This document shows positions 8,510-48,890 of a stretch of DNA of 64,000 nucleotides, piece by piece (the first letter of the stretch is position 1; the number at the start of each line of letters is the position of its first letter). The stretch lies in contig OY775914.1 of NCBI GenBank assembly GCA_963675215.1, forward strand, positions 11,181 to 75,180, in the 5' to 3' direction. The notes under the pieces are model-generated. The model saw only the letters and a list, made by a program, of their open reading frames with translations. It was not told the DNA's origin and ran no database searches. Position numbers and translations under genes: made by a program. The DNA comes from Bacteroidales bacterium. Lineage in GTDB: Bacteria > Bacteroidota > Bacteroidia > Bacteroidales > GCA-2711565.

Positions 8510-14803
<6,294 letters not shown>

Positions 14804-18254: not shown

Positions 18255-20177
18255 TTATTTGTACAGATATCTTGCAAAAACTTCGATGGCCTGGTATTCT
18301 GCCATTCCAAGTTGATCATATATTTCCGCAGTTGCGTGATTTCGATCTTCGGCCCTTTTCCAAAACTCTCGGGTGTCGTGACCGGGATAAAGCGGTCGAT
18401 CTTTTTGCGATTGGTGCTTAAATATAGCTCTTCTTTTTAATACCACTTCATCGGGGCTTAATGGCACCGCCATATCTACCTGATCAATATCCCACTCTTG
18501 CCATGCACCCCTATAAAGCCAAACATAACAATCCTCCATCCATATTTCATTTTTCAATTGATCAATGGCTTGGGTGATCGCACTCATGCAAACCCTGTGT
18601 GTACCATGCGGATCTGACAAATCACCGGCAGCATAAATTTGATGTGGTTTTATTTTTTTTATAATGTCTATCACAAGTCTAATATCTTCATTTCCTAAAG
18701 GTTTCTTTTTCACCTTACCAGTTTCGTAAAATGGCATATCCAGAAAATGAATATTTGAATCCGGAATTTTAGTAAAACGACAAGCCGATCTGGCTTCACC
18801 TCTTCTAATCGAAGCCTTCACATCCTGAATTTCTTTTGAATCTACCTGACCAGGTGCTTTATTTAGGAGGAAATCTGCTGCCATCTTATATACCTGATCC
18901 GATTTACTTTCACTGACTTCAAATATTTTATCATAGTCGCGCACAAAATCCAGGTAACGAATGGCATCATCATCAAACACCGCTATCGATCCAGAAGTTT
19001 GATAAACCACGTGAACCTCGTTTCCCTGCTCAACCAAACGCGATAGAGTTCCCCCCATTGAAATCACATCATCATCAGGGTGCGGGCTAAAAACCAAAAC
19101 CCTTTTAGGAAATGGCTTTGCTCTTTCAGGCCGGTTTGAGTCGTCCGCATTGGGTTTACCACCCGGCCAACCTGTGATGGTATGTTGTAATTCATTAAAT
19201 ACCTTGATGTTAATGTTGTAGGCAGGCCCATTGAGGGTAACTAATTCACCCATTCCATTGTCGTTATAATCTCTATCGGTAAGTTTTAAAATAGGTTTAT
19301 CTACTTTTTGACAGAGCCATACCACTGCTTTACGAATTTGACTGTCTGTCCAATCATTTAAACCGACCAGCCAGGGAGTTTTAATTCGGGTAAGTTCAGC
19401 AGAAGCAGCGGCATCAAGAATAATCTGAGCATTGTTATGTTCCTGAAGAAAAGTTGCAGGAACCATATTGGTAATTTCACCTTCAACCGCTTTTGAAATA
19501 ATATCGGATTTGGCTTCACCCCATGCAAGCAATAATATTTTTTTAGCTTTCAGAATACTACCAACACCCATTGTAATGGCTGTTTTTGGCACATATTGCT
19601 CTCCATAAAAGTCCGAGGCTGCATCGGTTAAAGTAAGATGATCCAGCGTAATTCTTCGGGTCATCGAATTGATGGAAGAGCCCGGTTCATTAAACCCAAT
19701 ATGTCCGGTTCGCCCGATCCCTAATAATTGAATATCTATTCCTCCACAAGCATCAATATTATCTTCATAATTTTGACAATATTCAAAAACCTTATCTTCT
19801 GAAATAGACCCGTCCGGAATGTTAATGTTTTCAGGTTTTATATCTATATGATCAAAAAGATATTCATGCATAAAGCGAACATAACTCTGCAGAGCCATGG
19901 GATCCATAGGGTAATATTCATCCAAATTAAAGGTGATTACATTCTTAAAACTAATACCTTCCTCTTTATGCAACCTAACTAATTCATCATAAATCCCTAC
20001 AGGCGTCGATCCGGTGGCCAGACCCAAAACAACTGATTTTCCCGCTTTCTTCCTATCTGAAATTAAGTCTGCAATTTCTCGGGCAACACTAACAGAAGCT
20101 TGCTTTGCATTTTCGAAAACTGTGGTTGGAATTTTCTCAAATCGATAGATCAAACTTCCTTCCTTCACTTCTTTCAT
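18255..20177 (-). CDS. nagB: Long-form glucosamine-6-phosphate deaminase (NagB domain fused to an LmbE/PIG-L-like domain)
   Basis: 640 aa. The N-terminal part has NagB motifs (LGLATGSTPVGIY, GIGRTGHIGFNEPGS). The C-terminal part has the PIG-L motif (VFSPHPDDDVISMGG). Confidence 0.85.
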   Translation of the reverse strand: MKEVKEGSLIYRFEKIPTTVFENAKQASVSVAREIADLISDRKKAGKSVVLGLATGSTPVGIYDELVRLHKEEGISFKNVITFNLDEYYPMDPMALQSYVRFMHEYLFDHIDIKPENINIPDGSISEDKVFEYCQNYEDNIDACGGIDIQLLGIGRTGHIGFNEPGSSINSMTRRITLDHLTLTDAASDFYGEQYVPKTAITMGVGSILKAKKILLLAWGEAKSDIISKAVEGEITNMVPATFLQEHNNAQIILDAAASAELTRIKTPWLVGLNDWTDSQIRKAVVWLCQKVDKPILKLTDRDYNDNGMGELVTLNGPAYNINIKVFNELQHTITGWPGGKPNADDSNRPERAKPFPKRVLVFSPHPDDDVISMGGTLSRLVEQGNEVHVVYQTSGSIAVFDDDAIRYLDFVRDYDKIFEVSESKSDQVYKMAADFLLNKAPGQVDSKEIQDVKASIRRGEARSACRFTKIPDSNIHFLDMPFYETGKVKKKPLGNEDIRLVIDIIKKIKPHQIYAAGDLSDPHGTHRVCMSAITQAIDQLKNEIWMEDCYVWLYRGAWQEWDIDQVDMAVPLSPDEVVLKRRAIFKHQSQKDRPLYPGHDTREFWKRAEDRNHATAEIYDQLGMAEYQAIEVFARYLYK

Positions 20178-20209
20178 TTTAAAATTATTTGATGAAATCG
20201 TTTATAATT

Positions 20210-21838
20210 TTAGTTGTTATTGGTGTATTTTGAAATTAGTGTTTTCTTTAAGTTTTTATACATCTCAACGGTTTCATCAACTTTTTTAAATGAGTAGTCC
20301 GTTAAAAACTCTTTGGCTTTTTTGGGGTTTTTTTGATATAACTCTAACGCTTCTTTCTCAATTTGTTTCTGATTATCGAAAAAACTTTGTTCGAGTGGAT
20401 TTCTTACAGCCCATAAATCCTGAACTGCATCCTGCCATCTTAAACCCAATAAATTATCCACAAAATCAATGGCCCAACGCAATGATTTTCCGTCAAATTC
20501 ATTGGGATTGTATGTGTAAATGTATGATGATATTTCTGAGGCTCCGGCATAAATTGGAATGTAAGTGCTCACATATTGATTATCTACATAATACCAATAA
20601 ACACCTCCGATATCATTGGGTAACCAACTTCTCAATTGAGCCACCATGCCATAACCACCTTTTGAAACCATGCGGCGATAATTAATATTTAATAATTCGC
20701 GCTGCGCTTGAGTTGGAAATGGGGTTGCTAATGGGCTTTTTTCATATTTCCCATCTTTACCCGGAACCAACCAATTTTTATCATTGGTCATGTCGTAAAT
20801 GGTTCCTTCAAAAATTTCACGCTGAAAGGCAATCACATCCTGAACCCCTAATTTTTTTTCCGGTTTAACCGAAAACGGGAACATTGATAATGGCTCCAGG
20901 TATTGATGATAAGCATCGTTTCCGGCGTAGGGTGAATGGGCAGTTTTATCCGGCCAATCTTTCAAGTTTGGAGCATATTTAGAAAAGAACAACCAAAAAC
21001 GACTAACAGCCCATTCTCTGGGAACCGGCGAATAAATCTCCTGCCAAATAAATGGTTTTCCACTTTTGGGATCCCACCAACCATGATCAATGGCAACCTG
21101 TTGATAATTTTCAGAAGCCATAAACTCATCGGGTTTAGATAAGTCAATTTCTTTGATGATGCTCCAGTTGGGTACAATGGCAATGTGATCGTCGGGAACC
21201 CTCTGGGCTGCCCAAATTGCTCCTGCCTCTCCGCTTTCAGGATCCCAATCAGGTCCTACACTAAAAACTTCGAGCACCCATGCTTCATTCGGATCAGCAA
21301 TGCATAAAGCTTCTGATTCAGGACCGCAAGATGTTTGGAAACCATACTTTTCCATCAAAGTAGTGATCAGTTCGATGGCCTCTCTGGCCGTTTTACATCT
21401 TTGTAATGCAAAGGCCTGCGCTTGCTCGATGGTCATGATTTGTTTTCCTGTTTCAATGCTAACCTGCAATTCCTTTTTCTGACTCATTGTACTTTCAGCA
21501 ATGGCTAACTGATGCTCGTTCATGTGCGAATAACCGGAATGGAAATAAGTATAAGTTTCTGCCACCTGAGGGATATACCCAATAATTTTCCCATATTCGT
21601 GCAAAGGTTTATCCACATCTTGTAATCCATAATAAACGGCTGCCATTTCTCCGAGCTTAAACTTTTTCCCGTAAATTACATGTACCCGACATTCAGGCGC
21701 AGCTCCTGTATGAGAAGTAATTACCGATCCATCTATTGATGCTTTTTTCCCGACAATGATATCGGTACAGGCGTTAACATCAACTGAGCCTAACAAAAAG
21801 ATAGCCCAAAAAAGCGAAAATATTTTTATAGTTTTCAT
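20210..21838 (-). CDS. C69-family dipeptidase
   Basis: 542 aa. The signal peptide is followed by the nucleophile motif ACTDIIVGKKAS. Confidence 0.8.
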   Translation of the reverse strand: MKTIKIFSLFWAIFLLGSVDVNACTDIIVGKKASIDGSVITSHTGAAPECRVHVIYGKKFKLGEMAAVYYGLQDVDKPLHEYGKIIGYIPQVAETYTYFHSGYSHMNEHQLAIAESTMSQKKELQVSIETGKQIMTIEQAQAFALQRCKTAREAIELITTLMEKYGFQTSCGPESEALCIADPNEAWVLEVFSVGPDWDPESGEAGAIWAAQRVPDDHIAIVPNWSIIKEIDLSKPDEFMASENYQQVAIDHGWWDPKSGKPFIWQEIYSPVPREWAVSRFWLFFSKYAPNLKDWPDKTAHSPYAGNDAYHQYLEPLSMFPFSVKPEKKLGVQDVIAFQREIFEGTIYDMTNDKNWLVPGKDGKYEKSPLATPFPTQAQRELLNINYRRMVSKGGYGMVAQLRSWLPNDIGGVYWYYVDNQYVSTYIPIYAGASEISSYIYTYNPNEFDGKSLRWAIDFVDNLLGLRWQDAVQDLWAVRNPLEQSFFDNQKQIEKEALELYQKNPKKAKEFLTDYSFKKVDETVEMYKNLKKTLISKYTNNN

Positions 21839-21848
21839 GATTTATGTT

Positions 21849-23159
21849 TTATTTTCCTTCAGGAAATTCATAAGTGATATTAATATCGAGCCATTCTTCA
21901 AGCTTTCGAAACATTTCTTGTCTGATTTCTTTTGGGAAATGCCTTATTCGAGTTGAATGCGAGCCTCCGGGCAAAACATATTTTACGGCATTACATTCGC
22001 CAGTTAGCACAACCTGTTGTGATGCATAAGGATCAAATCCTCCATAAATGTACAGGAAGTTATCACCTTCGGTTTGAAGGTATTTATTCACCTTCTGCAT
22101 TAACTCGGGATGATAAGTTATTTCATAATTTTCGGGAAGTACGAAATCATAATTATGTTCTTTTACCACATCCAGCATTCCTTCAAACTCCGTTACATCA
22201 TAACCGTAATAACCAAAATCTCTCATGGCCTGAACCATGAAAGTATAACCTTCTTTGTTCTTTGGCTCGGTCAGATAACCGTATCCAACTACTTTTTCGA
22301 AGTGCTTGTAAAGAGAATCAATTCCAACGCTTACATCAGGAATCGAATTGCAATCAGCTCCCCACTGCCAAAAAGCAAACGGATATTCCAGCACCATATA
22401 TTCATAGCCAAATTCATAGCCCGGACGATAAGTATACGCTGCCTTCTTATTTCCGGCGATAAATTTAGGGAGTAATTCCTTTTTATTTTTAAGAAGCAAT
22501 ACCTGGAAATCATGAATGGCAGCTCTGCATTCAGGTGTTCCAACCGTATCGAAATAATGGTAAAACCTGGGGTCTGCTTTGTCAAACATTAAAGGGCCAA
22601 CATAAGGCACAGATGCATCCACATCATCCGGAAAAAAATACCGGTGATACATGGTGGTTTGCCCTCCTTTACTAATTCCTGTATTTACCCATTTTCCGGT
22701 AAAAAAAGGTTTCAAAAGTTCAACTACACGATGATGATCATTGGCAGCTTGCTCTATGGTTAGGTAATCATAATTTGTGCTATCAGGGAAAGAAGTCCCG
22801 AAGTATCGATGTTCTACAAAAATTTGATTGGCATCTAATATGCGGGTGATCTCCTCGATATAATTTGCACGCGTAGCCCGATTTGCATTATAACCTTCAG
22901 TCACAAATACCACAGGTTTTTCTTTACTATTTAAAGATAAAAAAACACGTTGCTTAAAAGTTTCGCTATCAGGATTTTTATGATCGAGTGGTTGGGTAAT
23001 TTCCAAATGATAAAACTCATTAAAGTTTTTACCTTTTTCTTTTTGCGAAATGGTCAAACCCGGAACAGTTTGCAGAAACTGCATCAAATCTGAATTTTGC
23101 GCAATGGCGATTTGACCGACAAAAATAAATAACAGACTTAGCTTTAATATTCTTTTCAT
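21849..23159 (-). CDS. Secreted alpha/beta-hydrolase serine peptidase (S28/S37-like aminopeptidase)
   Basis: 436 aa with a signal peptide. Motifs: VEHRYFGTSFP and the nucleophile elbow GISKGG. Confidence 0.6.
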   Translation of the reverse strand: MKRILKLSLLFIFVGQIAIAQNSDLMQFLQTVPGLTISQKEKGKNFNEFYHLEITQPLDHKNPDSETFKQRVFLSLNSKEKPVVFVTEGYNANRATRANYIEEITRILDANQIFVEHRYFGTSFPDSTNYDYLTIEQAANDHHRVVELLKPFFTGKWVNTGISKGGQTTMYHRYFFPDDVDASVPYVGPLMFDKADPRFYHYFDTVGTPECRAAIHDFQVLLLKNKKELLPKFIAGNKKAAYTYRPGYEFGYEYMVLEYPFAFWQWGADCNSIPDVSVGIDSLYKHFEKVVGYGYLTEPKNKEGYTFMVQAMRDFGYYGYDVTEFEGMLDVVKEHNYDFVLPENYEITYHPELMQKVNKYLQTEGDNFLYIYGGFDPYASQQVVLTGECNAVKYVLPGGSHSTRIRHFPKEIRQEMFRKLEEWLDINITYEFPEGK

Positions 23160-23176
23160 GCTTTTTTAATGTTTGA

Positions 23177-24205
23177 TTATCTAAAAATAAACCCTTTTAC
23201 AAGCGGGTCTTCCGGATCAAAATAAAACTTATGTTCTCCGGTAATATATGCTGTTCCACTAACCTCGGGGATTACGGCCGGATAGCCTCCGAATTCAGTT
23301 TCTTCCACCACTTTTACCTCAAAACAAGTATCTAAAATGCTTTCGATGCGAATCGATTCTCCTTTTTTAATTCCCTTTTCAAAATAATGAATGGCTGCCC
23401 TGGCACTTACTCCGGTTCCGGTTGGTGAGCGATCTACTTCACCCTCGGCAAACACACATACATTGCGACTATGGTTTTCAGAATTGTTTGCTTTTCCTGT
23501 AAAAATGGTTCCATACAAAAAGCTTAAATCTTCTTCGAAAGGATGTTTGATCTCGAAATTTTGCATTACCGCATTTTTAATGCGTTTTCCCCAATCAATG
23601 ATCTGATTATGGTCGGATGCTTGAAGTCCCAGGCCAATTTTATCGGCATCAACAAAAGCATAAAAGGCACCGCCATAAGCCACCTCAAATTTGATCTTGC
23701 CAATTCCATCAACTTCAATTTCCTTGTCCTTCAACAAAACAAAAGAGGGAACGTTTCGAAAAGAAACAGATTCAACTTTTCCTTGCTTTCTTTTAACAGT
23801 TGAAACTATTCTTCCGGCTGGAGCATCGATCTTTAATTCAAATTCATCTCCTTCTTTTTCAATCATTCCTGTTTCGGGAAGTATTTTTGAAAGGGCAATG
23901 ATGGCATGGCCACACATGGTACTGTAGCCTTCGTTATGAATAAAAAACACCCCGAAATCACCATCTGCTGTATTTGCAGGAATTAAAATGGCTCCATACA
24001 TATCGGCATGCCCACGCGGTTCAAACATGGTTGAGGTACGCAAATGATCGTAATTTTCTTTGAAATACCTTCTTCTTTCCAAAACCGTACTTCCTTTGAT
24101 TTCGGGAAGCCCGTTTTTAAAAATACGGAGGGGTTCTCCACCGGTATGCGCGTCAATGGTTTCAATACAAAGCCAATGATTTGGCGGTGTCCAATTTGTT
24201 TTCAT
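23177..24205 (-). CDS. Proline racemase superfamily enzyme, Cys/Thr type (probable trans-3-hydroxy-L-proline dehydratase)
   Basis: 342 aa. The first catalytic motif STMCGHA keeps its Cys. The second reads DRSPTGTGVSA, with Thr where racemases and epimerases have Cys. Confidence 0.75.
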   Translation of the reverse strand: MKTNWTPPNHWLCIETIDAHTGGEPLRIFKNGLPEIKGSTVLERRRYFKENYDHLRTSTMFEPRGHADMYGAILIPANTADGDFGVFFIHNEGYSTMCGHAIIALSKILPETGMIEKEGDEFELKIDAPAGRIVSTVKRKQGKVESVSFRNVPSFVLLKDKEIEVDGIGKIKFEVAYGGAFYAFVDADKIGLGLQASDHNQIIDWGKRIKNAVMQNFEIKHPFEEDLSFLYGTIFTGKANNSENHSRNVCVFAEGEVDRSPTGTGVSARAAIHYFEKGIKKGESIRIESILDTCFEVKVVEETEFGGYPAVIPEVSGTAYITGEHKFYFDPEDPLVKGFIFR

Positions 24206-24386
24206 ATTCGTTAAATATTTAGCACCTCAAATTAATGAAAAAGGGCGTAGAATTGCTAATAAAGGGAAGATATTATTTAATATGCTGATGGGTTGATGTG
24301 AAAACGTGCAAATATATTATTATGCTGATGAGCTATAAAAGAAAGACAACAAAAAGCCTAACGGATTATAGTCTCAAATTTTTAAC

Positions 24387-24480
24387 AAAAAAACCCTACG
24401 GAGTACGCAGGGTTAAAGTTCTTTATGAACTACGGCATATAGCCTTATTGTGATAAGATAATTTATGGATATATTATCTG
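24387..24480 (-). ncRNA. Predicted tracrRNA of the type II-C system
   Basis: The minus-strand RNA reads ..AUCCAUAAAUUAUCUUAUCACAAU-AAGGCUAUAUGCCG-UAGUUCAUAAAGAACUUUAA-CCCUGCGUACUCCGUAGGG-UUUUUUU. The anti-repeat (24447-24473) pairs with repeat positions 1-27 through 22 Watson-Crick pairs plus one G:U, with an internal 2-nt mismatch. An AAGGC nexus hairpin follows (24434-24446). A terminal hairpin (24394-24412) carries a G:U that works only in the minus-strand RNA, and is followed by U7. The 5' end is inferred from the promoter. Confidence 0.75.
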
Positions 24481-24484
24481 TTAA

Positions 24485-24515
24485 CAAATATAACATTTTT
24501 AGATATAAAAACAAA
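24485..24515 (-). promoter_or_regulatory. Bacteroidota-type promoter for the tracrRNA
   Basis: The minus strand reads TTTG (24515-24512), then 19 nt, then TATATTTG (24492-24485). This is an exact match to the TTTG-N19-21-TAnnTTTG consensus, placed a few nt upstream of the anti-repeat. Confidence 0.6.
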
Positions 24516-24596
24516 TGACTAACTTTAGGGTTTAGTTTTACTACTCCCTCAAAAACTAGAAATAAATTATTTTTCTACTTTAATCAAAATTTTCAT

Positions 24597-27500
24597 ATGG
24601 CTAGAATATTAGGACTTGACCTCGGTACCAATTCGATTGGCTGGGCATTAATTGACGATAAAGAAAATAAAATCATAAATACCGGGGTTAGGATTTTTCA
24701 GGAAGGAATAAACAGAGATACCAAAGGGGGTGAACTATCCAAAAACGAAACACGCCGTAATGCCAGGCAATTAAGAAAACAATACTTTAGAAGAAGCTTG
24801 CGAAAGAAATTATTGTTAAAAATTCTGAAAGAAAACCAAATGTGTCCAATTGAAGAGAATGACTTTTCAACTTGGATTAAAATGAATCCTTATAAATTAA
24901 GAGCACTAGCTATTCATTCTAAGTTAAGTCTTACTGAGATAGGTCGAATATTTTTCCATATCGCACAAAGAAGAGGATTCAAAAGTAGTAGAAAGTCAGG
25001 GAAAGAGGATGGTAAGATATATTCAGGCTTAAAAGAAAGTGGAACCATTGGAATTGACCAGACCCAAGAAAATATCGCAAAAGGTTATCACACTCTGGGT
25101 GAATATTTAGCATCTATCGATCCAAGTGAGGAAAGACTAAGAAATCGATATACAACTAGAAGAATGTATGAACAGGAGTTTGAGCTGATTTGGGATAAGC
25201 AAGCTCAATTTCATCCTAAAACTTTTACACATAGTTTAAAGGATAAACTTGGCTATGAAAAAGAAGGAATTATTTTTTATCAACGCAAACTTAAATCACA
25301 AAAAACAAATATTGGGAAATGTACGCTTGAACCAAATAAACACAGGTGCCCAATAAGTACTCCGGTTTATGAAGAGTTTAGGACTTGGCAATTTATTAAC
25401 ACCATTCAGTATGATCAAAAAAGGCTTAGTAATGATGAGCGAGAAGTAGCTTCTCAATTCTTTTTTAATAAGGCTTCATTCAAATTCTCTGAACTAAAGA
25501 AAAAATTAGGATTATCAGAATACAACTTCAATTATGATGATGATCAAAAAATACCGGGGACATCCACAATATCTACTTTTAGAAAACTATTTACGACTAA
25601 TATTTGGGAAGCAAAAACTGACAAAGAAAAAGATATTATTTGGCATATTTTTTTTAGTGCTGAAGACACTGATTGGCTAGAAGAGTATGCAAAAACAAAC
25701 TGGAATTTTGATCAAAAAACCAGTGCTAAGTTAAAAAACATCAACTTAAAACAAGACTATTCAAACCTCAGTCGTAAAGCCATAAACAATATTTTACCAT
25801 TCTTAAAAAAAGGTTATTTGTATAATGATGCAGTTGTTTTGGGTGGTATTAGAAATGCAATTGGAGGAGAAAAGTTTGATGCACTGGAAGAAACCGAATA
25901 TAACATGATCATCGACGGTTATTTTGCAGCCAAAAAGTTTAAAAACAAAGAAGGTGAATTAATTGAATTAGTTAAGAACTTTTTAATTGATCATTATCAT
26001 CTTAACGACAAAGCTTTAAAAAAATTATACCACCATAGTCAGGATACCGAATCAATGCTAGTTGTATCAAAACTTCCTGAACCAGAAAACCTAAGAAACC
26101 CCATTGCTCAGCAAGCCATTTTTGAATTAAGAACTTTAATTAACAAACTAATTGAAAATTACGGCAAACCGGATACCATCAACGTTGAAATGGCACGGGA
26201 TTTAAAATCATCAAAAAAACAAAGAGATGAATATCGATTTAACCAAAGAAGAAATCAAGAGAAAAATGATGAAGCAAGAGTAGAGGTAGAAAAGTTTGGC
26301 TTAAAACCATCACGAAATAACATACAAAAATACCTTTTATGGAAAGAATTAGAGGCAAAAAATGGAATTGCAGTTTGTCCTTATACAGGTAAGACGATCA
26401 ATGAGGAGGATGCGCTTGGCGAAAACAATAAATTCCAGATTGAGCATATAATCCCCTATAGTGTTTCACTTGACGACAGCTTTGCCAACAAAACTCTCTG
26501 CGATGCCAAAGAAAATCAGAAGAAGGGAGATAAAACCCCATATCAGTTTTATGGTGGTGATAAAAAAGATTGGCAGATGAGATCTGAAAGGGCTTTTAAA
26601 TTACTCCCTTATCATAAAGCGAAGAAGTTTGTTTCAACCAAAGAATTCCAGCTAGATGATTTTATACAACGACAGCTTAATGACACCAGAATAATAAGTA
26701 AAGCAGCCAAAGATTATTTAAAACAACTCGGAGTAAAAGTTTCAGTATTACCAGGACAATTAACATCCGAACTAAGAAGCAAATGGGGCTTAAACAATAT
26801 TCTGAATCCCGAAGAAGGGAAAAAAACACGCGATGATCACCGACACCATGCGATAGATGCCTTAACTGTTGCTGCAACTAAGCAATCATTTCTGCAAGAA
26901 ATGAGTAAGTGGAATAAATACAATAAATCATATGATTTAAAAGACTTCCCAAAACCCTGGAAATCATTTTTTGAAGATACGCAAACCTCCATAAACAATG
27001 TATTGGTATCATATCATAAACAACATAGAACCATTACAAAGGCAAATAAAACTATTAAAAAAGATGGGAAGAAATATAAATCAAGTGGAATATCAGCAAG
27101 AGGACAACTGCATAAAGAAACTGTATATGGCCAACACTTGAGTTCTAACGGAGAAAAATACTATCACGTCCGTAAGCCTTTAAATACCATTGATAATAAA
27201 GCCAAAGTAGATAAAATAGTTGACCCCATGGTTCGTTCAATCATCGAATCTTTTTTAAGAGGAAAAGGAATTAATGTTGATGAGAAATATAAGTTAGACA
27301 AAGACATTTTTTTCAAGATAAATGAAGATACAGGCCAAAAAGAAACCCTCATTTATCTACCAAACAAAAATGGAAGCCCAATTCCAGTTAAAAAAGTAAG
27401 GATAAAAGAATTTTCGACAGGAGCCGTAAAACTTAAAGACCATATTAACCAATGGGTAGAACCCGGAAATAACCACCACATTTCAATTTATAAAAATGGA

Positions 27501-27869
27501 GATGCTTATGTCGAAGAGGTGGTTACCTTTTGGGAAGCGGTTGAAAGGAAAAAACAAGGGCTTCCTGTTATTAATAAAACCCCTAAAAACGGGAATGAAT
27601 TTGAATGCTCATTACAAATTAATGATTTATTCCTACTAAATATCAATGAAGTAGACATCAACTGGGAAAAACCTGACCAGAACTATTTAAGCAAATTTCT
27701 TTATCGTGTCCAAAAACTATCTGCTTCTTATTATACTTTCAGGCATCATTTGGCTGCAACTCTAGAATATAAGGATGAAGAAATAACGATTCAAAGTTTC
27801 AAAGCTTGGAAAGGACATAACCCACTAAAAGTAAAGATAAACCATTTTGGGGAAATTTCAAGATTTTAA
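24597..27869 (+). CDS. cas9: Cas9, type II-C, 1090 aa
   Basis: RuvC-I: ILGLDLGTNSIGWAL. Arg-rich bridge helix: RRNARQLRKQYFRRSLRKK. RuvC-II: INVEMARDL. HNH: CPYTG...QIEHIIPYSVSLDDSFANKTLC. RuvC-III: DDHRHHAIDALTVA. All catalytic residues appear intact. Confidence 0.95.
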   Translation: MARILGLDLGTNSIGWALIDDKENKIINTGVRIFQEGINRDTKGGELSKNETRRNARQLRKQYFRRSLRKKLLLKILKENQMCPIEENDFSTWIKMNPYKLRALAIHSKLSLTEIGRIFFHIAQRRGFKSSRKSGKEDGKIYSGLKESGTIGIDQTQENIAKGYHTLGEYLASIDPSEERLRNRYTTRRMYEQEFELIWDKQAQFHPKTFTHSLKDKLGYEKEGIIFYQRKLKSQKTNIGKCTLEPNKHRCPISTPVYEEFRTWQFINTIQYDQKRLSNDEREVASQFFFNKASFKFSELKKKLGLSEYNFNYDDDQKIPGTSTISTFRKLFTTNIWEAKTDKEKDIIWHIFFSAEDTDWLEEYAKTNWNFDQKTSAKLKNINLKQDYSNLSRKAINNILPFLKKGYLYNDAVVLGGIRNAIGGEKFDALEETEYNMIIDGYFAAKKFKNKEGELIELVKNFLIDHYHLNDKALKKLYHHSQDTESMLVVSKLPEPENLRNPIAQQAIFELRTLINKLIENYGKPDTINVEMARDLKSSKKQRDEYRFNQRRNQEKNDEARVEVEKFGLKPSRNNIQKYLLWKELEAKNGIAVCPYTGKTINEEDALGENNKFQIEHIIPYSVSLDDSFANKTLCDAKENQKKGDKTPYQFYGGDKKDWQMRSERAFKLLPYHKAKKFVSTKEFQLDDFIQRQLNDTRIISKAAKDYLKQLGVKVSVLPGQLTSELRSKWGLNNILNPEEGKKTRDDHRHHAIDALTVAATKQSFLQEMSKWNKYNKSYDLKDFPKPWKSFFEDTQTSINNVLVSYHKQHRTITKANKTIKKDGKKYKSSGISARGQLHKETVYGQHLSSNGEKYYHVRKPLNTIDNKAKVDKIVDPMVRSIIESFLRGKGINVDEKYKLDKDIFFKINEDTGQKETLIYLPNKNGSPIPVKKVRIKEFSTGAVKLKDHINQWVEPGNNHHISIYKNGDAYVEEVVTFWEAVERKKQGLPVINKTPKNGNEFECSLQINDLFLLNINEVDINWEKPDQNYLSKFLYRVQKLSASYYTFRHHLAATLEYKDEEITIQSFKAWKGHNPLKVKINHFGEISRF

Positions 27870-27891
27870 ATGCCTGCTCATACTATTAACT

Positions 27892-28782
27892 ATGCTTAAA
27901 CGAATCTTATATTTCTCAAAACCTTATCACTTAAACACCAAGAACGAACAACTAATCATTACCAATAAAGAAAATGGAGAAATTAAACAAGCCCCCATTG
28001 AAGACATTGGCTTTGCCGTTTTTGATCATCCCCAAATTACGTTTACGCAATCGGTTGTTCAAATACTGGCCGAAAATAATACAGCCATTGTTTTTTGCGA
28101 CAAAAAACATCACCCTTCTTCTCTGCTTTATCATTTAGATTCAAATACGGTTCAAAGCGAAATTTTCAGACATCAAATTAATGCCAGCGAACCCCTAAAA
28201 AAGAATCTTTGGAAACAAACCATTGAGGCTAAAATAAAAAACCAAGCAGCTCTTATAAAAAAAATCGGTAGAGACGAAAGCCAAATTCATTTACATTCAC
28301 AATTGGTAAAGAGCGGCGACACAGATAACCGAGAGGCTCAAGCCGCCCGTTTATACTGGAAACGATTGTTTAGTGAAGGATTTAAGCGCGAGCGCTATGG
28401 AATGCCCCCCAATCCCAGTTTAAACTATGGGTATGCCATTTTACGAGCAGCCGTTGCACGTGCACTCAGCGCATCCGGGCTTTTGCCAACACTGGGGATT
28501 CACCATCACAACAAATACAATGCCTATTGCCTTGCCGATGATATTATGGAACCCTATCGTCCTTTTGTTGATGAATGCGTGCTGGAAATTAAAAAGAATA
28601 ACCCGGATTATCACATCATCGATAAAAATCAAAAAGCAACCTTATTAAACATTTTAAACAAAGATGTGTATTTTGAAAATATAAATCGCCCCCTGATGGT
28701 AGGGCTAAGCATCACAACGGCCTCACTGGCCAGGTGTTTTAATGGAAAAACCAAGAAATTATTATTTCCATCATTTAAATAA
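27892..28782 (+). CDS. cas1: Cas1 integrase
   Basis: The type II Cas1 N-terminus is MLKRILYFSKPYHLNTKNEQL. I chose the internal ATG at 27892, not the track start at 27847, which overlaps the cas9 stop. Confidence 0.9.
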   Translation: MLKRILYFSKPYHLNTKNEQLIITNKENGEIKQAPIEDIGFAVFDHPQITFTQSVVQILAENNTAIVFCDKKHHPSSLLYHLDSNTVQSEIFRHQINASEPLKKNLWKQTIEAKIKNQAALIKKIGRDESQIHLHSQLVKSGDTDNREAQAARLYWKRLFSEGFKRERYGMPPNPSLNYGYAILRAAVARALSASGLLPTLGIHHHNKYNAYCLADDIMEPYRPFVDECVLEIKKNNPDYHIIDKNQKATLLNILNKDVYFENINRPLMVGLSITTASLARCFNGKTKKLLFPSFK

Positions 28783-29121
28783 ATGAGTTTTAACCGGCTA
28801 AATGCCTATCATATTATGTGGCTGTTTGTATTTTTTGATCTGCCAACCAACACTAAAAAAGAAAGAGGCTTTGCCGCTCGATTCCGAAAAAACCTCTTAA
28901 AAGATGGCTTTAGTATGATGCAATATTCGGTTTACAACCGTCATTGTGCCAGTCGCGAAAGTGCCCATGTTCATATAAAAAGGGTTCAATCATTTATAGG
29001 CGAAAAAGGAAGAGTTAGTATTATGATGGTCACCGACAAACAATATGGTGAGATTATAAACTATTGGGGTATGAAAGAAGACCCCCTGCCCGAAGCACCA
29101 AAACAATTAGAACTTTTTTAA
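28783..29121 (+). CDS. cas2: Cas2
   Basis: 112 aa. Type II Cas2 signature: YHIMWLFVFFDLPTNTKKERGFAARFRKNLLKDGFSMMQYSVY. It abuts the cas1 stop. Confidence 0.9.
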   Translation: MSFNRLNAYHIMWLFVFFDLPTNTKKERGFAARFRKNLLKDGFSMMQYSVYNRHCASRESAHVHIKRVQSFIGEKGRVSIMMVTDKQYGEIINYWGMKEDPLPEAPKQLELF

Positions 29122-29167
29122 ATTAATCCTAATTCAAAAAACCAGATTTGAACCTTGCATAAGTATT

Positions 29168-29202
29168 CAACCTTATCATTTTTTTAATCAAGAAAATCAC
29201 GC
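29168..29202. repeat. Decayed (fossil) CRISPR repeat at the cas2-proximal end of the array
   Basis: caaCCTTATCATTTTTTTAATCAAGAAAATCACGC resembles the repeat at roughly two thirds of positions by eye. Shared blocks are TTATC, TTAATCAA and ATCAC. It sits one spacer-length (34 nt) before repeat 1. Confidence 0.35.
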
Positions 29203-29236
29203 TTCACTTTGATTACCAGAAGGCTTATCGCCAACT

Positions 29237-30327
29237 AATATCTTTTATCCATAAAATTAATCAAATCACAACATTACAATACAAACTAGCTGTTCCAAAC
29301 TTAATATCTTTTATCCATAAAATTAATCAAATCACAACTCACACATACTACCAATGGTCGATCTTTTTAATATCTTTTATCCATAAAATTAATCAAATCA
29401 CAACTGTATAATCATCACCACCGCTTTCAAATCCAATATCTTTTATCCATAAAATTAATCAAATCACAACTAGAGTTTGTATGTTTCCGCATGATGGGCA
29501 AATATCTTTTATCCATAAAATTAATCAAATCACAACTACAACAGGAGGTGAGTTTTATAGCAGCTTAATATCTTTTATCCATAAAATTAATCAAATCACA
29601 ACATATATCCGGCGTATTCAGTCTAACCTTATAATATCTTTTATCCATAAAATTAATCAAATCACAACTATTTCCCACTGCATAATAGGCAGGCAATGAA
29701 TATCTTTTATCCATAAAATTAATCAAATCACAACTATTAACGCCCATTGATTGTGCTTTCTTTTAATATCTTTTATCCATAAAATTAATCAAATCACAAC
29801 ACACGACCGGGTTCTTTAATTCCTTTTAAAATATCTTTTATCCATAAAATTAATCAAATCACAACAGTATGATGTAAACGGTAAAGAATATTCAGAATAT
29901 CTTTTATCCATAAAATTAATCAAATCACAACTAGCCTCGATGACATTAAATTATTTGATGAAATATCTTTTATCCATAAAATTAATCAAATCACAACTAT
30001 TTCCCACTGCATAATAGGCAGGCAATGAATATCTTTTATCCATAAAATTAATCAAATCACAACTATTAACGCCCATTGATTGTGCTTTCTTTTAATATCT
30101 TTTATCCATAAAATTAATCAAATCACAACTCAAAACGTCCAAATGTACCATGTGATTTAAATATCTTTTATCCATAAAATTAATCAAATCACAACTGTTT
30201 GGTGGTAGCCCGTGCCAAAGTTTTAAATATCTTTTATCCATAAAATTAATCAAATCACAACATAAAGAAGGTGAAACCGTTGCACGACCTAAATATCTTT
30301 TATCCATAAAATTAATCAAATCACAAG
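29237..30327 (-). CRISPR. CRISPR array: 17 repeats of 36 nt and 16 spacers (15 of 30 nt, one of 29 nt)
   Basis: The plus-strand repeat is AATATCTTTTATCCATAAAATTAATCAAATCACAAC. In the crRNA sense it is GTTGTGATTTGATTAATTTTATGGATAAAAGATATT. Repeats start at 29237, 29303, 29369, 29435, 29501, 29567, 29633, 29699, 29765, 29830, 29896, 29962, 30028, 30094, 30160, 30226 and 30292. The last repeat ends in G where the others end in C. Strand is assigned from the GTTGTG start and tracrRNA complementarity. Confidence 0.97.
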
Positions 30328-30472
30328 CTCCTCATTCGTTTTTTTTAATAAACGCTTTTCGAAAAAGCTTTATGAATGACAACGGTGTCATAAAGGCTAT
30401 CAGCAAACAGAACCTTATGAACTCATACCAACAACAAAACAATTTTTAAAATACAGTAGTATAAAATATAAG

Positions 30473-30530
30473 TTTGACTAGTTAATTACTATATTTCAAC
30501 TAGTTAAGTTAAGTGTTTTGACTAGTCAAA
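30473..30530. promoter_or_regulatory. Three phased palindromic boxes (TTRACTAGTYAA)
   Basis: The boxes are TTTGACTAGTTAA (30473-30485), TTCAACTAGTTAA (30495-30507) and the perfect palindrome TTTGACTAGTCAAA (30517-30530). Their ACTAGT cores start at 30477, 30499 and 30521, exactly 22 bp apart. Confidence 0.45.
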
Positions 30531-30632
30531 CTGAAAGTTTTGTTAAGTTAAAAATATTACTTCAAAACAATCAGGAGGACATTTGACCAGTAATGGTATA
30601 AAGTAAAAACATATTCTTCAACAAGAAACATC

Positions 30633-31013
30633 ATGTCAATTCGATTCAAAGCTGTAAAACTCAAAGACAATATTAATCCGGAAACACCCGATATGTTTAT
30701 CGCCGTAGCAAAAAGTCGTGGTATAACCACATTGGATGAACTTTCAAAAAATATCGCACTCATGTCAACAGTTAGCCGGGCCGATGTTTATGCCGTGCTT
30801 ATTGCCTTATGCGATAGCCTGCCACAAGCTTTAAGTAAAGGAAATATTGTTCGTTTAGGTCATTTCGGAAGTTTTATGATTGGGCTGGGGAGCGAAACAG
30901 CTGAATCGTCCGACGAAATTACGATGAAAAAAGTGAATCAAATAAAACTACGTTTTAGACCTTCAAAAGAAATTAAAAATGCATTAAAACAATTTGAATT
31001 AGAAAAAATTTAG
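30633..31013 (+). CDS. Bacteroidota-specific HU-like (histone-like) DNA-binding protein
   Basis: 126 aa. Its layout is typical of the HU_HIG-like family (KAVKLKDNINPETPDMFIAVAKSRG...VRLGHFGSFMIGL...IKLRFRPSKEIKNAL). Confidence 0.7.
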   Translation: MSIRFKAVKLKDNINPETPDMFIAVAKSRGITTLDELSKNIALMSTVSRADVYAVLIALCDSLPQALSKGNIVRLGHFGSFMIGLGSETAESSDEITMKKVNQIKLRFRPSKEIKNALKQFELEKI

Positions 31014-31015
31014 TT

Positions 31016-32446
31016 TTATTTAAATTCGAGTTCATTCTTTTTAAAAAACACAAATTCCCCCAAATAACTTTCAGTTCCAAAAACTTTAGCTTTTAGTTGA
31101 TCATCATTAAAAACACCTTTCAGCTCCAGCATTTGACCTGAATTGGTTAAAAAGGTTAAGGTTATATTTTTATCATTCAAAAAAAGATGATCTATTTTAT
31201 AAACGCTGCCATTGGAGGCAGTCATTTCGCCATAAATGGCATTCTTATTTGTCAACAGATTAACCACCAAAGCTTCATGCTTTGGATTTTCTGGTTTGGT
31301 TTCCCAACGTCCTTTAAAAAACTGATTCTCGACATTTTCAGCACGCTGCCAATGGTTCGTTAAATTCGCAATAGACTCATTAGGTTCTAATCCTCCCATT
31401 TTAAAAAATCCCTCTCCAACTAAATCAACCAAAGAATTCAAGAATTCTTTCATTTCTTTTGCCGTATATGGATGAAGTAAATCTTTCATATCCCCTCCCC
31501 TTTCGATATCCATATTTTGGATTAAACAAGGGCCCGACTTTGCTGCGAAATCAATGTCATTAAATGAAAGCTGCTTGATTGCAGGATTCAATCGTGTACG
31601 AAAATAGACCTGCTTTTTTAGAGGATCAAATACGATAGACCACTCGGCAACATCACTCACTTTAATTTTATCCAAAATATAAAATCCATAATCAATCACA
31701 TTTTGGTCGGGGTTATAATTTTTTATTAATTCGGCAGTCTTCACAAATCTTGGCACCTCTGGATTATCCATTTCAACTTTGTACAATCCACCGAAATTAT
31801 CATAATACTTTGCTATCTCCATTTCACGATCGTAAGCCGTATTAAATAATGCTTTTACAGGCATTTTTTCATCACGATTTATTTTCATTTTGCCATTAAC
31901 AAAAGTTAAAGCTGCACAATCGCCGCTCGCATCACCTAAAAAATAGTGCCAAGTCCATCCATCAATTTCTATCCCTTTAGTCAGCTCAAATGCTTCGTCT
32001 AAAGTTGAACAATTATCTAACAAATACTGCATCCATCCCATCTGGCTCAGCTTATGGAGCGAATCCCCTTGTGGATATTCGGTATCTTCATTCATTTCCT
32101 CAATAAAAAAGCCGGTTTCGTTCATTCCGCCATCAGGTAAATCTCTACCAAAATTATTGAAAGTGACTGATCCATATCGAGAGATCCAATTCAGTTTTGA
32201 AGGTTTGGCTACTTCTTTAAACATTAGCTCATTCAGGCTTCTTCCCATCTTAAAAACACCTCTTTTATTCACAAACACAATTCCGGGAACTCCAATATCG
32301 CCTTCATTTAAATTATGTCCAAAAATGAGTTTGCCTCCTTTATGAAGCATAAAGGTTGAACAAGCATTTGTTTTTGTAGTGTTTAGTAATGTTAAGGACA
32401 TTATTAAAATTCCTAACATTTTGATTTTTTGCATCCAGTTGCTCAT
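31016..32446 (-). CDS. Secreted linear-amide C-N hydrolase (choloylglycine hydrolase/Ntn family) with a C-terminal extension
   Basis: 476 aa. The signal peptide ends in the nucleophile context TNACSTFMLHKGG. About 130 extra C-terminal residues are of unknown fold. Confidence 0.65.
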   Translation of the reverse strand: MSNWMQKIKMLGILIMSLTLLNTTKTNACSTFMLHKGGKLIFGHNLNEGDIGVPGIVFVNKRGVFKMGRSLNELMFKEVAKPSKLNWISRYGSVTFNNFGRDLPDGGMNETGFFIEEMNEDTEYPQGDSLHKLSQMGWMQYLLDNCSTLDEAFELTKGIEIDGWTWHYFLGDASGDCAALTFVNGKMKINRDEKMPVKALFNTAYDREMEIAKYYDNFGGLYKVEMDNPEVPRFVKTAELIKNYNPDQNVIDYGFYILDKIKVSDVAEWSIVFDPLKKQVYFRTRLNPAIKQLSFNDIDFAAKSGPCLIQNMDIERGGDMKDLLHPYTAKEMKEFLNSLVDLVGEGFFKMGGLEPNESIANLTNHWQRAENVENQFFKGRWETKPENPKHEALVVNLLTNKNAIYGEMTASNGSVYKIDHLFLNDKNITLTFLTNSGQMLELKGVFNDDQLKAKVFGTESYLGEFVFFKKNELEFK

Positions 32447-32710
32447 CGTATTTTAATTTGGTTAATTACTTTCGTTATAACTTTGACGCCCAAATCTATG
32501 CATGAGTTACAGCCAAGATGATAATACTTTAAACAACACAAAAGAGTTTTACAGGCAAAAAACAGGTATTCACCGATTTTTGCTTTAAACCGTAAAAACG
32601 TTAGCATAGTTTTGTGTGATTATAAAAAGATGGCCGTTTACTTATATTGATAATATCAAAGATTGGGGGTCGTCCAATTATTAATTTAATTTTTATCAAA
32701 AAATAATCCC

Positions 32711-34450
32711 ATGAAAATATTTAAATTATTATCACCTATATTTTTCGTTTTCTTATTTCTATTAGGGGAACCAACTTACGCACAAGAAAGTACCAATAAA
32801 CTTGAAGTTGGATACAGAAGAACTGGAAACATTGATGCAGAAGGGTTTTCATTGCAACGAAAAACAACCATTCAAATTGAAGGCTATGGCGGTTTATATG
32901 AAAGAATGGGCAGCGATTTAATGTTTTATGGGTGGATCCTTGATGCGAAGACCCGTGAAGTGGTATGGAGTTTACTAAAAGAAAAAAATGATGAATTTTA
33001 CAGGCATCGGGATCGGGGCAGGTTTTCTTTTAATAGCGAAATCACCCTGCCAGCCGGCGATTATGAGGTTTACTATGCGGCTGGATTAGATCAGGACAAT
33101 AAAAATGGCAGAAGTTTCGTAATTGACGATTTGGGTGATTTGATCGATTTGATATTTAATGGAAATTCCAGAGAGCGCGACTCAAGAAGATATGAAGATT
33201 TTACGATGCAGGTGATTGGCCCTGCCGGAAATTTTGAAAAAAATGATTGGCGTGAAAGTGTTGACGAATTTTCAAAAACATGCATCGCTTCTATTGTTCG
33301 GGCAGGAGATGATGAATTCATCACAGAAAATTTTACAGTTGAGGATGATATTGAACTAAACATCCGAGGAATTGGCGAGCAAAACGATGGGGAGCAATTT
33401 GATTTTGCCTGGATAGTGGATACAAAAACCTATGAGAAAATTTGGCCAACAAAAGCAAGCAGGTTTAAAACAGCCGGTGGAGGCAGAAAAAACAAATTGG
33501 TGTCGGAAAAAATTGAACTACCTAAAGGAAATTACACCCTTTATTATATTTCCGATGACAGTCATTCTTTCGACAAATGGAATGTACTTCCACCTTACGA
33601 TCCTCAATTCTGGGGGATTTCTATCTGGGCTAATGAAAAAGATCGCCACAAAGTTCAATTAAGTGAAGAATCAGATTCCTTTGTTTTGAAACTTACCAAA
33701 GCCAGAGATAATGATTATTTGAGCCAGGCTTTTAAGTTAAAAAAAGACATGAAAATTCGGGTTTACAGCATCGGCGAACGATCAGGAAATTATGACATGG
33801 CAGATTATGGCTGGATTATCAATACCGATACACACGAAAAAGTTTGGGAGTTTAAATCCAGAAATTCGGAATACGCCGGAGGTGGCGAAAAAAACAGAAT
33901 GGTAAATGAAGAAATAGAATTAGAAAAAGGAAATTATATGGCATACTACGTTACAGATGGATCACATTCATATCGTGATTGGAATGTGGCTCCACCATTA
34001 ATCCCGGACCTTTACGGGTTAAGCATTTTGGCAGGTGACGAAAGTGATTATTTCGAATTATCAGATGCACACACCATTACGGATGAAAATCTTCTTGCTG
34101 AAATTGTGAGGGTTAGGGATAACATATACGAACGAAAAAACTTTACGCTAAGCAAAGAATCGAAAATAAGGATTTATGCCATAGGCGAAGGGACTAACTG
34201 GGATATGGATGATACAGGATGGATCAAAAGTCGGGAGACCGGGAAAGTTGTTTGGGAAATGACCTACAGAAATACCGAGCCTGCCGGTGGAGCGTCAAAA
34301 AACAAACTATTTGACGGGACCATCATTTTACCTGAAGGTGAATACACGGTTTATTTCGAAACCGATGGTTCTCACTCTTACCGCGATTGGAACGCCTCAG
34401 CACCTCATGATCAAGAACATTACGGCATAAGTGTTTATTTGGTGAAATAA
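32711..34450 (+). CDS. Secreted protein made of four ~130-aa internal repeats, function unknown
   Basis: 579 aa with a signal peptide. A recurring block appears four times: GWI.D..T.E.VW...AGG..KN...E.I.L..G.Y..YY..DGSHS...WN..PP. Confidence 0.7.
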   Translation: MKIFKLLSPIFFVFLFLLGEPTYAQESTNKLEVGYRRTGNIDAEGFSLQRKTTIQIEGYGGLYERMGSDLMFYGWILDAKTREVVWSLLKEKNDEFYRHRDRGRFSFNSEITLPAGDYEVYYAAGLDQDNKNGRSFVIDDLGDLIDLIFNGNSRERDSRRYEDFTMQVIGPAGNFEKNDWRESVDEFSKTCIASIVRAGDDEFITENFTVEDDIELNIRGIGEQNDGEQFDFAWIVDTKTYEKIWPTKASRFKTAGGGRKNKLVSEKIELPKGNYTLYYISDDSHSFDKWNVLPPYDPQFWGISIWANEKDRHKVQLSEESDSFVLKLTKARDNDYLSQAFKLKKDMKIRVYSIGERSGNYDMADYGWIINTDTHEKVWEFKSRNSEYAGGGEKNRMVNEEIELEKGNYMAYYVTDGSHSYRDWNVAPPLIPDLYGLSILAGDESDYFELSDAHTITDENLLAEIVRVRDNIYERKNFTLSKESKIRIYAIGEGTNWDMDDTGWIKSRETGKVVWEMTYRNTEPAGGASKNKLFDGTIILPEGEYTVYFETDGSHSYRDWNASAPHDQEHYGISVYLVK

Positions 34451-48349: not shown

Positions 48350-48890
48350 TGACTGTTACATTAATTTTATTCATTAAAATTGATCGGGCACGTAAATATT
48401 GTGTTTTTGAGGTTGATTCCGAAATCTTCAACATTTCACCGATCTCTTTATGTTTGTAGCCCTCCAGTGCAAATAAATTAAAAATTATTCTGGATCCTTC
48501 GGGTAACTCTTTAATTGCCTGATGAATATATTCGGGATTATTTGCAGCATATTCATCCCAATTATACGAATCGGGTTTTTCAAAATTCCCGGATTCTATT
48601 TCAACGAGCATTAATTTATTTTTGCGCAAATGGCTGATGCATTGATTGATTACGATTCGCTTTAGCCAGGCTCCGAAAGTCGACTTGCCTTCAAAACGCT
48701 TCAGGTTTCGGAATGCACTTACGAATGCATCCTGAAGAATATCTTCGGCCTCGTGCCTGTCGTTCAGCATACGTAAACAAATATTATACATTGCCTTAGA
48801 ATAAAGTTTGTATAGCCTGTATTGTGCACGCGAATCACCGCAGATACATTTTGTAATTAATTCAGCATGCATTTCAAATTCTGGCTTCAA
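48339..48890 (-). CDS. ECF RNA polymerase sigma factor
   Basis: 183 aa. Region 2: EAEDILQDAFVSAF, FGAWLKRIVINQCISHLRK. Region 4: HKEIGEMLKISESTSKTQYLRARS. Confidence 0.85.
   Translation of the reverse strand: MKPEFEMHAELITKCICGDSRAQYRLYKLYSKAMYNICLRMLNDRHEAEDILQDAFVSAFRNLKRFEGKSTFGAWLKRIVINQCISHLRKNKLMLVEIESGNFEKPDSYNWDEYAANNPEYIHQAIKELPEGSRIIFNLFALEGYKHKEIGEMLKISESTSKTQYLRARSILMNKINVTVNEN

Follow-up and report, generated by a model that had tools for sequence, protein, structure and literature searches.

The minus strand immediately upstream of cas9, at one end of a compact CRISPR-Cas locus, very probably carries a functional tracrRNA gene of a type II-C CRISPR-Cas9 system. The locus lies within the window (the whole 64-kb stretch of DNA that was analysed). 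A sequence-only reading had predicted here a tracrRNA of about 90 nt, transcribed from the minus strand and divergent from cas9, and this prediction was supported by comparison with other genomes: the same element was found upstream of cas9 in more than 40 related loci, and its helices covary.

The cas locus and CRISPR array

The locus contains cas9, cas1 and cas2, each with its open reading frame intact, and a CRISPR array after them (Table 1). A Pfam scan of seven flanking ORFs found no match to the Csn2 or Cas4 families. As cas9, cas1 and cas2 are present and no Csn2 or Cas4 match was found in the flanking ORFs scanned, the locus is of type II-C (cas9, cas1 and cas2 only). The ORFs around the cas locus were assigned by Pfam scan to a proline racemase, an S37 peptidase, an HU-like protein and a CBAH hydrolase. 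The window Cas9 is 57% identical to its nearest homolog among 5.8 billion clustered proteins and about 51% to the next, and the search of species-representative genomes gave none above 48%; the solved structures closest to it are Cas9 chains of about 1082-1095 aa. By these identities, the window Cas9 is isolated in sequence space, with no close relative.

The repeat is GTTGTGATTTGATTAATTTTATGGATAAAAGATATT in the minus-strand reading, which is the crRNA sense (GTTGTGATTTG...). Sixteen of the 17 repeats are identical, the sole variant (CTTGTG...) being the cas-distal copy at 30292-30327. Two blocks of the array, 29633-29803 and 29962-30132, are duplicates with 99% identity, and spacers 4 and 5 are the same as spacers 9 and 10 (numbered from the cas-distal end), so that 14 distinct sequences are found among the 16 spacers; this points to internal recombination or a duplication of about 330 bp within the array. 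A blastn search of the whole array against 50,697 phage records revealed no protospacer (best E 0.09), IMG/VR contained no exact 24-mer of any of the three cas-proximal spacers, and no spacer match was found elsewhere in the 64-kb window at up to 6 mismatches. Between the array and the HU-like gene (30633-31013), three copies of TTTGACTAGTTAA/TTGACTAGTCAA with a 22-nt spacing are located at 30463-30540 and together make up a 23-nt inverted repeat with 83% complementarity; these copies look like operator sites.

Table 1. Features of the predicted tracrRNA gene and of the adjacent CRISPR-Cas locus
Feature	Position	Strand	Description
Predicted tracrRNA transcript	24479 to 24387	-	about 93 nt; 118 nt upstream of the cas9 ATG
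-33 promoter element TTTG	24512-24515	-	part of an exact TTTG-N19-TATATTTG match, 24485-24515
-7 promoter element TATATTTG	24485-24492	-	Bacteroidota TAnnTTTG type
Anti-repeat UAUCCAUAAAUUAUCUUAUCACAAU	24447-24471	-	25 nt; pairs with repeat positions 1-27; plus strand reads ATTGTGATAAGATAATTTATGGATA
Nexus AAGGCUAUAUGCCG (DNA AAGGCTATATGCCG)	24446-24433	-	3-bp stem GGC/GCC, 5-nt loop
Hairpin 2, AGUUC AUAAA GAACU	24431-24417	-	5 bp; from MFE fold and covariation
Intrinsic terminator	24414-24387	-	stem 24414-24392, loop UACUC, U7 at 24393-24387; from terminator scan
cas9	24597-27869	+	1090 aa; Pfam RuvC_III and HNH_4; divergent from tracrRNA
cas1	27847-28782	+	Pfam Cas_Cas1, E 3.9e-30; start codon uncertain
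cas2	28783-29121	+	Pfam CRISPR_Cas2, E 1.6e-16
CRISPR array	29237-30327	- (crRNA sense)	17 repeats of 36 nt, 16 spacers of 29-30 nt

Structure of the tracrRNA element

The 5′ end of the predicted transcript was placed from the promoter, with a margin of about 3 nt, and its 3′ end was read off the U-run. The predicted fold of the 93-nt RNA (MFE -23.4 kcal/mol, z -4.07, against z -2.47 for the opposite strand) consists of the nexus, hairpin 2 and terminator modules, with none of the three helices disrupted. The minus strand has the nexus, hairpins and terminator 3′ of the anti-repeat, which is the order of a tracrRNA tail. The sequence-only reading had likened the nexus to the AAGGC nexus of S. 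pyogenes, and the nexus found right after the anti-repeat does have AAUAAGGCUA in common with the Streptococcus type. It had also described a small hairpin followed by a terminator with U7, and both are in place; the terminator stem has 9 bp, of which 7 make up the G+C-rich core. Folding of crRNA and tracrRNA together in silico, which it had proposed as a check, yielded the duplex, the nexus and two hairpins.

Within the window alone, the anti-repeat match and the promoter pattern are not statistically distinctive. The anti-repeat is the top alignment to the repeat by a narrow margin (score 28 versus 27 and 25 elsewhere), with an RNAduplex energy of -22.8 kcal/mol versus -22.6 and -22.4 kcal/mol at unrelated AT-rich sites; and the TTTG-N19-TATATTTG pattern occurs twice versus 0.87 occurrences expected, two or more being seen in 24 of 100 shuffles. 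Because such single features are not decisive in an AT-rich window, the case for a tracrRNA rests on comparison with other genomes. The element as a whole is far beyond chance: with a leave-one-out covariance model, built from 41 other loci and excluding the window, it scored 82.5 bits (E 2.7e-14) and was the sole significant match in 64 kb.

Other strong duplex partners of the repeat (1166-1210, 9151-9195, 48351-48395 and 53846-53890) had no covariance model match and were set aside as AT-rich chance matches. At 30328-30620, by the cas-distal end of the array, AAGGCTAT and TTCATAAAG had suggested to the eye a second tracrRNA or a pseudo-copy, which was likewise rejected: local alignment scores in this segment were 16-19 versus a null mean of 17.7 and a 95th percentile of 22, and the covariance model with filters off found no second copy in 20000-34000, this segment included.

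Conservation of the element in related cas9 loci

The comparison set comprised 80 cas9 loci taken from genomes that represent species, together with four closer loci from metagenomes. A pattern search found the arrangement of variable anti-repeat, CTTATCACAAT, AAGGCTATATGCCG, (T/A)AG, hairpin, G+C-rich hairpin and T-run in 36 loci, with few exceptions 50-250 nt upstream of cas9 and opposite to it in strand. By covariance model at E <1e-6, the element was located about 50-250 nt upstream of cas9 in at least 41 loci, and in all but three of those it is opposite in strand to cas9. The closest relatives, L081 (57% Cas9 identity), L082 and L083, also carry it. A first covariance model, built from 33 sequences with the window's own included, gave 49 matches in 81 sources; the match in the window was unique (24376-24482, minus strand, 85.3 bits).

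The nexus columns are invariant or nearly so in the 33 sequences, with 100% of the pairs kept and GC/CG swaps among them. In the alignment of 49 sequences, 97.9% of cells were paired and compensatory changes were seen in 14 of 15 pairs; none of 500 shuffles reached the observed value, and slid partners paired at only 44-49%. When the window and the weak matches were removed, 98.4% of cells were paired and nine pairs had compensatory changes, again reached by none of 500 shuffles. Both alignments had been fitted to the model, a bias toward the structure, but substitutions in hairpin 2 and the terminator (GC to AU, UA to CG) are visible in the unaligned raw sequences too. Across loci, the helix of hairpin 2 has GC or AU at one pair and UA, CG or AU at another, and six to seven of the 8 modelled pairs of the terminator have compensatory changes.

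Rfam gave no tracrRNA match at E up to 10 in 22000-32000, nor at the gathering score in the whole window. The Rfam model of Streptococcus-type tracrRNA is RF02348. Judged from these searches, the element is outside the family of the Rfam tracrRNA model, though it would work in the same way.

In L082, a second and weak model match was found at 4895-4996 on the minus strand (27.3 bits, E 0.006), some 1.8 kb past the real tracrRNA of that locus. Its hairpin and terminator are like those of the tail and its nexus is degenerate; it may be a decayed duplicate.

The repeat:anti-repeat duplex

Alignment of the plus strand at 24447-24471 with repeat positions 1-27 revealed two mismatches (positions 9-10) and two single-base gaps. 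The sequence-only reading had taken the plus strand at 24447-24473 for a crRNA-sense repeat; its assignment to repeat positions 1-27 stands, and its end has to be moved to 24471, 2 nt short of the one it gave. The resulting duplex contains 22 Watson-Crick pairs and one G:U (G1:U), the same count as had been proposed for a minus-strand anti-repeat, and its energy is -22.1 to -22.8 kcal/mol. The anti-repeat also co-varies with the local repeats. In the 24 loci with both array and element, cognate duplexes had a mean of -27.1 kcal/mol versus -14.7 kcal/mol for loci with different repeats; the window anti-repeat reached -22.1 kcal/mol with its own repeat versus -10 to -14.7 kcal/mol with foreign repeats.

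The 2-nt mismatch at repeat positions 9-10 and the two 1-nt bulges noticed earlier are both present, and they differ in their distribution. A U.U/U.U internal loop at positions 9-10 was found in 24 of the 24 cognate duplexes and is therefore a family trait. The two extra bulges of the window duplex are lacking in most relatives, for example in the Flavobacterium group; irregularities near repeat positions 12-17 occur in the near relatives L082 and L083 too. Set against that of L081, the anti-repeat of the window seems to have undergone small deletions.

Because the duplex is weaker than the family mean and contains two bulges, reduced function of the tracrRNA is possible. Carried further, the same features could be those of a decayed relic, either an orphan degenerate repeat beside a fortuitous terminator or a tracrRNA pseudogene which does not support Cas9, the more so as the anti-repeat match by itself is barely above that of chance sites in the AT-rich window and the duplex is weaker than that of most relatives. 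We consider such decay very unlikely. The tracrRNA tail is 84-89% identical to those of relatives whose Cas9 is only 45-47% identical, the three helices, the promoter and the terminator are all intact, and so are the three cas genes and, but for one copy, the identity of the repeats. Cognate duplexes of comparable weakness are also found in L020 (-20.8 kcal/mol) and L025 (-23.3 kcal/mol).

Promoter, strand and direction of transcription

The sequence-only reading had pointed to an exact TTTG-N19-TATATTTG promoter of Bacteroidota type just upstream of the element, and the match is there on the minus strand. About 30 of 39 related loci have an exact TAnnTTTG box, which precedes the nexus by 20-43 nt (mostly 36-41 nt), and TTTG or TTG at -33 is present in many, though not all, relatives. 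This conserved promoter position is in favour of transcription starting just a few nucleotides ahead of the anti-repeat.

Departures from this arrangement were observed in some loci. In L037 (2746-2848, plus strand) and L054 (6875-6977, plus strand), titled as a Neomarinimicrobiota MAG and an unclassified uncultured bacterium, promoters of the TTGACA-N17-TAnnnT type take the place of TAnnTTTG, and the tracrRNA is on the strand of cas9. In L020, L039, L041 and L025 the TAnnTTTG box is only 20-23 nt upstream of the nexus; if this box is used, the anti-repeat of the tracrRNA in these loci would be only about 14-16 nt long.

The terminator stem contains the pair G24408:U24398, which on the opposite strand would be an A-C mismatch, as the sequence-only reading had remarked, and the G:U is conserved in 38 of 41 sequences. 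This conservation identifies the minus strand as the transcribed one; the T-run and the promoter are both on this strand. It is thus most improbable that the functional transcript is instead read from the plus strand, with the array also read on plus and the anti-repeat carried in an RNA running into cas9, for example as a cas9 5′ leader. The plus strand does fold (the z of -2.47 given above) and Sigma-70-like hexamers occur on both strands, but such a transcript would carry its anti-repeat on the 3′ side of the hairpins, opposite to the order in every known Cas9 guide, and its T-run turned into a 5′ A-run, while the conserved TAnnTTTG box would remain on the minus strand. Published sgRNAs of the same tracrRNA family also have the minus-strand polarity.

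The remaining reading, an sRNA or a 5′ leader or attenuator of the proline racemase gene (23177-24205, minus strand) unrelated to CRISPR, shares the strand and has the terminator ending 180 nt upstream of the gene start, but it has next to no probability, as the element accompanies cas9 in more than 40 loci with a different sequence past the terminator in each, and its 5′ part co-varies with the local CRISPR repeat.

The polarity of the predicted tracrRNA fixes the crRNA strand, and the array would therefore be transcribed toward cas2. In type II-C systems, arrays are reported to be transcribed toward the leader, with a terminal degenerate repeat at the opposite end (PMC8092290); the degenerate repeat at the cas-distal end of the window array agrees with this pattern. 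A search for TAnnTTTG in the repeat, in the minus strand at 30328-30700 and in the gap between cas2 and the array found none for the array. The promoter-like content of the repeat is limited to TTG at positions 2-4, and its 3′ end is GATATT; TTG at repeat positions 2-4 has also been proposed for F. columnare (PMC8092290).

The organisation of the array relative to cas9 varies among the loci. The GTTGTG sense is opposite to the cas9 strand in the window and in L016, L020, L074, L082 and L083, and the gene order cas9-cas1-cas2-array is found in the window, L082 and L083. Many Flavobacteriales loci have the array directly after cas9 and in the same sense. In L004, a GIY-YIG ORF is located between cas9 and the array, and beyond the array come cas2 and cas1, encoded on the other strand. 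The window and L004 alike have an array that converges on cas2; because this still holds in L004, the cas1-cas2-array block behaves as a unit.

Proposed function and significance

In the proposed mechanism, the Bacteroidota-type promoter TTTG-N19-TATATTTG would start minus-strand transcription near 24479 and the intrinsic terminator would stop it near 24387, so that the transcript would measure about 93 nt. The 25-nt anti-repeat at its 5′ end would pair with positions 1-27 of every repeat in a pre-crRNA transcribed from the minus strand of the array; besides the conserved 2x2 U.U internal loop at positions 9-10, this duplex would contain two single-base bulges. The nexus AAGGCUAUAUGCCG, the 5-bp hairpin and the terminator hairpin, which together make up the 3′ tail, would be the scaffold bound by Cas9, and the crRNA:tracrRNA:Cas9 complex would cleave DNA matching the spacer. 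We infer from what is known of Cas9 systems that the RNA is transcribed, that RNase III processes the duplex, and that Cas9 binds and cleaves.

A further role is conceivable, if only as an outside chance: the tracrRNA may also regulate the locus, a self-paired or longer form acting as a natural single guide which represses cas9. A long form of the S. pyogenes tracrRNA has been reported as a natural single guide repressing cas9. In the window, the free RNA is predicted to pair its first 7 nt, AGAUAAU, with AUUAUCU of the anti-repeat in a 7-bp, AU-only stem, and the tracrRNA promoter lies in the 118-nt intergenic region shared with cas9. Inspection of this intergenic region by eye found no second upstream TAnnTTTG on the minus strand.

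With the predicted tracrRNA annotated, the parts list is complete for what appears to be an intact type II-C system with a divergent Cas9 (57% identity to its nearest homolog), and the exact RNA is available for building an sgRNA for the 1090-aa Cas9. As Rfam is without a model for this tracrRNA family, the comparative set (at least 41 loci, the covariance model, the U.U/U.U loop and the promoter position) may serve as a detection model. The finding is a sound annotation rather than a discovery, and leaves the understanding of Cas9 systems unchanged.

Comparison with known tracrRNAs

Among the known tracrRNAs closest to that of the window are those of Ghe Cas9, a 1525-aa protein from a hot-spring metagenome, and of Rsp Cas9, a 1213-aa protein from Rikenellaceae sp.; they are tabulated with their sgRNAs by Gasiunas et al. 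2020, Nat Commun (PMC7606464, Supplementary Data, file 4) and whose sgRNAs were used to determine PAMs by cleavage (PMC7606464). In both, the repeat has the same 5′ end as in the window (GUUGUGGUUUGAU...), and the 3′ end of the anti-repeat, CUUAUCACAAU (CUUACCACAAU in Rsp), gives the 2-nt U.U loop of the window at positions 9-10. The nexus of Ghe is that of the window, AAGGCUAUAUGCCG, and that of Rsp is AAGGCCAUGGGCCG; the core of Ghe, CUUAUCACAAUAAGGCUAUAUGCCG, is identical to that of the window, and Rsp has CUUACCACAAUAAGGCCAUGGGCCG. A short hairpin follows in both, then a G+C-rich terminator hairpin with the window's loop (GCGUACUCCGU in Rsp, GCUUCGGU in Ghe) and a U-run. Overall, the tail of the window tracrRNA is 70-72% identical to those of Ghe and Rsp, from which the window differs in the distal anti-repeat, the two extra single-base bulges and the sequence of hairpin 2. 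From tracrRNA similarity we infer that the Ghe and Rsp orthologs are like those of the L058 and L025/L041 loci; the Cas9 of these loci shares about 30-46% identity with the window Cas9 over the best-matching segment. About a dozen entries in the catalogue of Gasiunas et al. contain [U/C]CACAAUAAGG (PMC7606464).

The type II-C system of F. columnare is from Flavobacteriia, with repeats of the window's type (36 nt, starting GTTGT) and an array transcribed toward the leader (PMC8092290); its tracrRNA is putative and was not experimentally validated (Hoikkala et al. 2021, mBio, PMC8092290). The Flavobacterium and other Flavobacteriales loci of the comparison set (such as L004, L007, L010 and L032) carry the tracrRNA family of the window upstream of cas9. 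In several of the Flavobacteriales relatives the array is directly after cas9 in the same orientation, whereas the window has cas9-cas1-cas2 and a convergent array. F. psychrophilum Fp1/Fp2Cas9 were considered as closest relatives and set aside, Fp2Cas9 having 1548 aa versus 1090 aa in the window. In the literature searched, the exact core sequence of the tracrRNA was not found, and the repeat prefix was found in F. columnare and strain-tracking papers only.

The tracrRNA of Neisseria meningitidis (Nme1/Nme2) has ACAAUAAGGCC...GCCG right after the anti-repeat, as in the window, and Nme2 Cas9 (1082 aa) is close in size to the window Cas9; 6JDQ, among the best structure matches of the latter, is presumably Nme Cas9. 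The Nme nexus stem is much longer (GGCCGUCUGAAAAGAUGUGCC), and the tail differs, with 51% identity in alignment. Nme repeats carry their own promoters. Such repeat-borne promoters are cited for Nme in PMC8092290, and a motif equivalent to them was not found in the window repeat.

The similarity to the S. pyogenes type lies in the nexus, where AAUAAGGCUA is common to both, and in the order of duplex with bulge, nexus, hairpins and U-run. The S. pyogenes tracrRNA gene is placed divergently upstream of cas9. The type, represented by the Sdy row of PMC7606464, is II-A and differs from the window in its repeat and 3′ hairpins. Taken with the likeness to Ghe and Rsp, these sequence comparisons indicate that the element is a member of a known tracrRNA family with demonstrated guide function, in the usual position.
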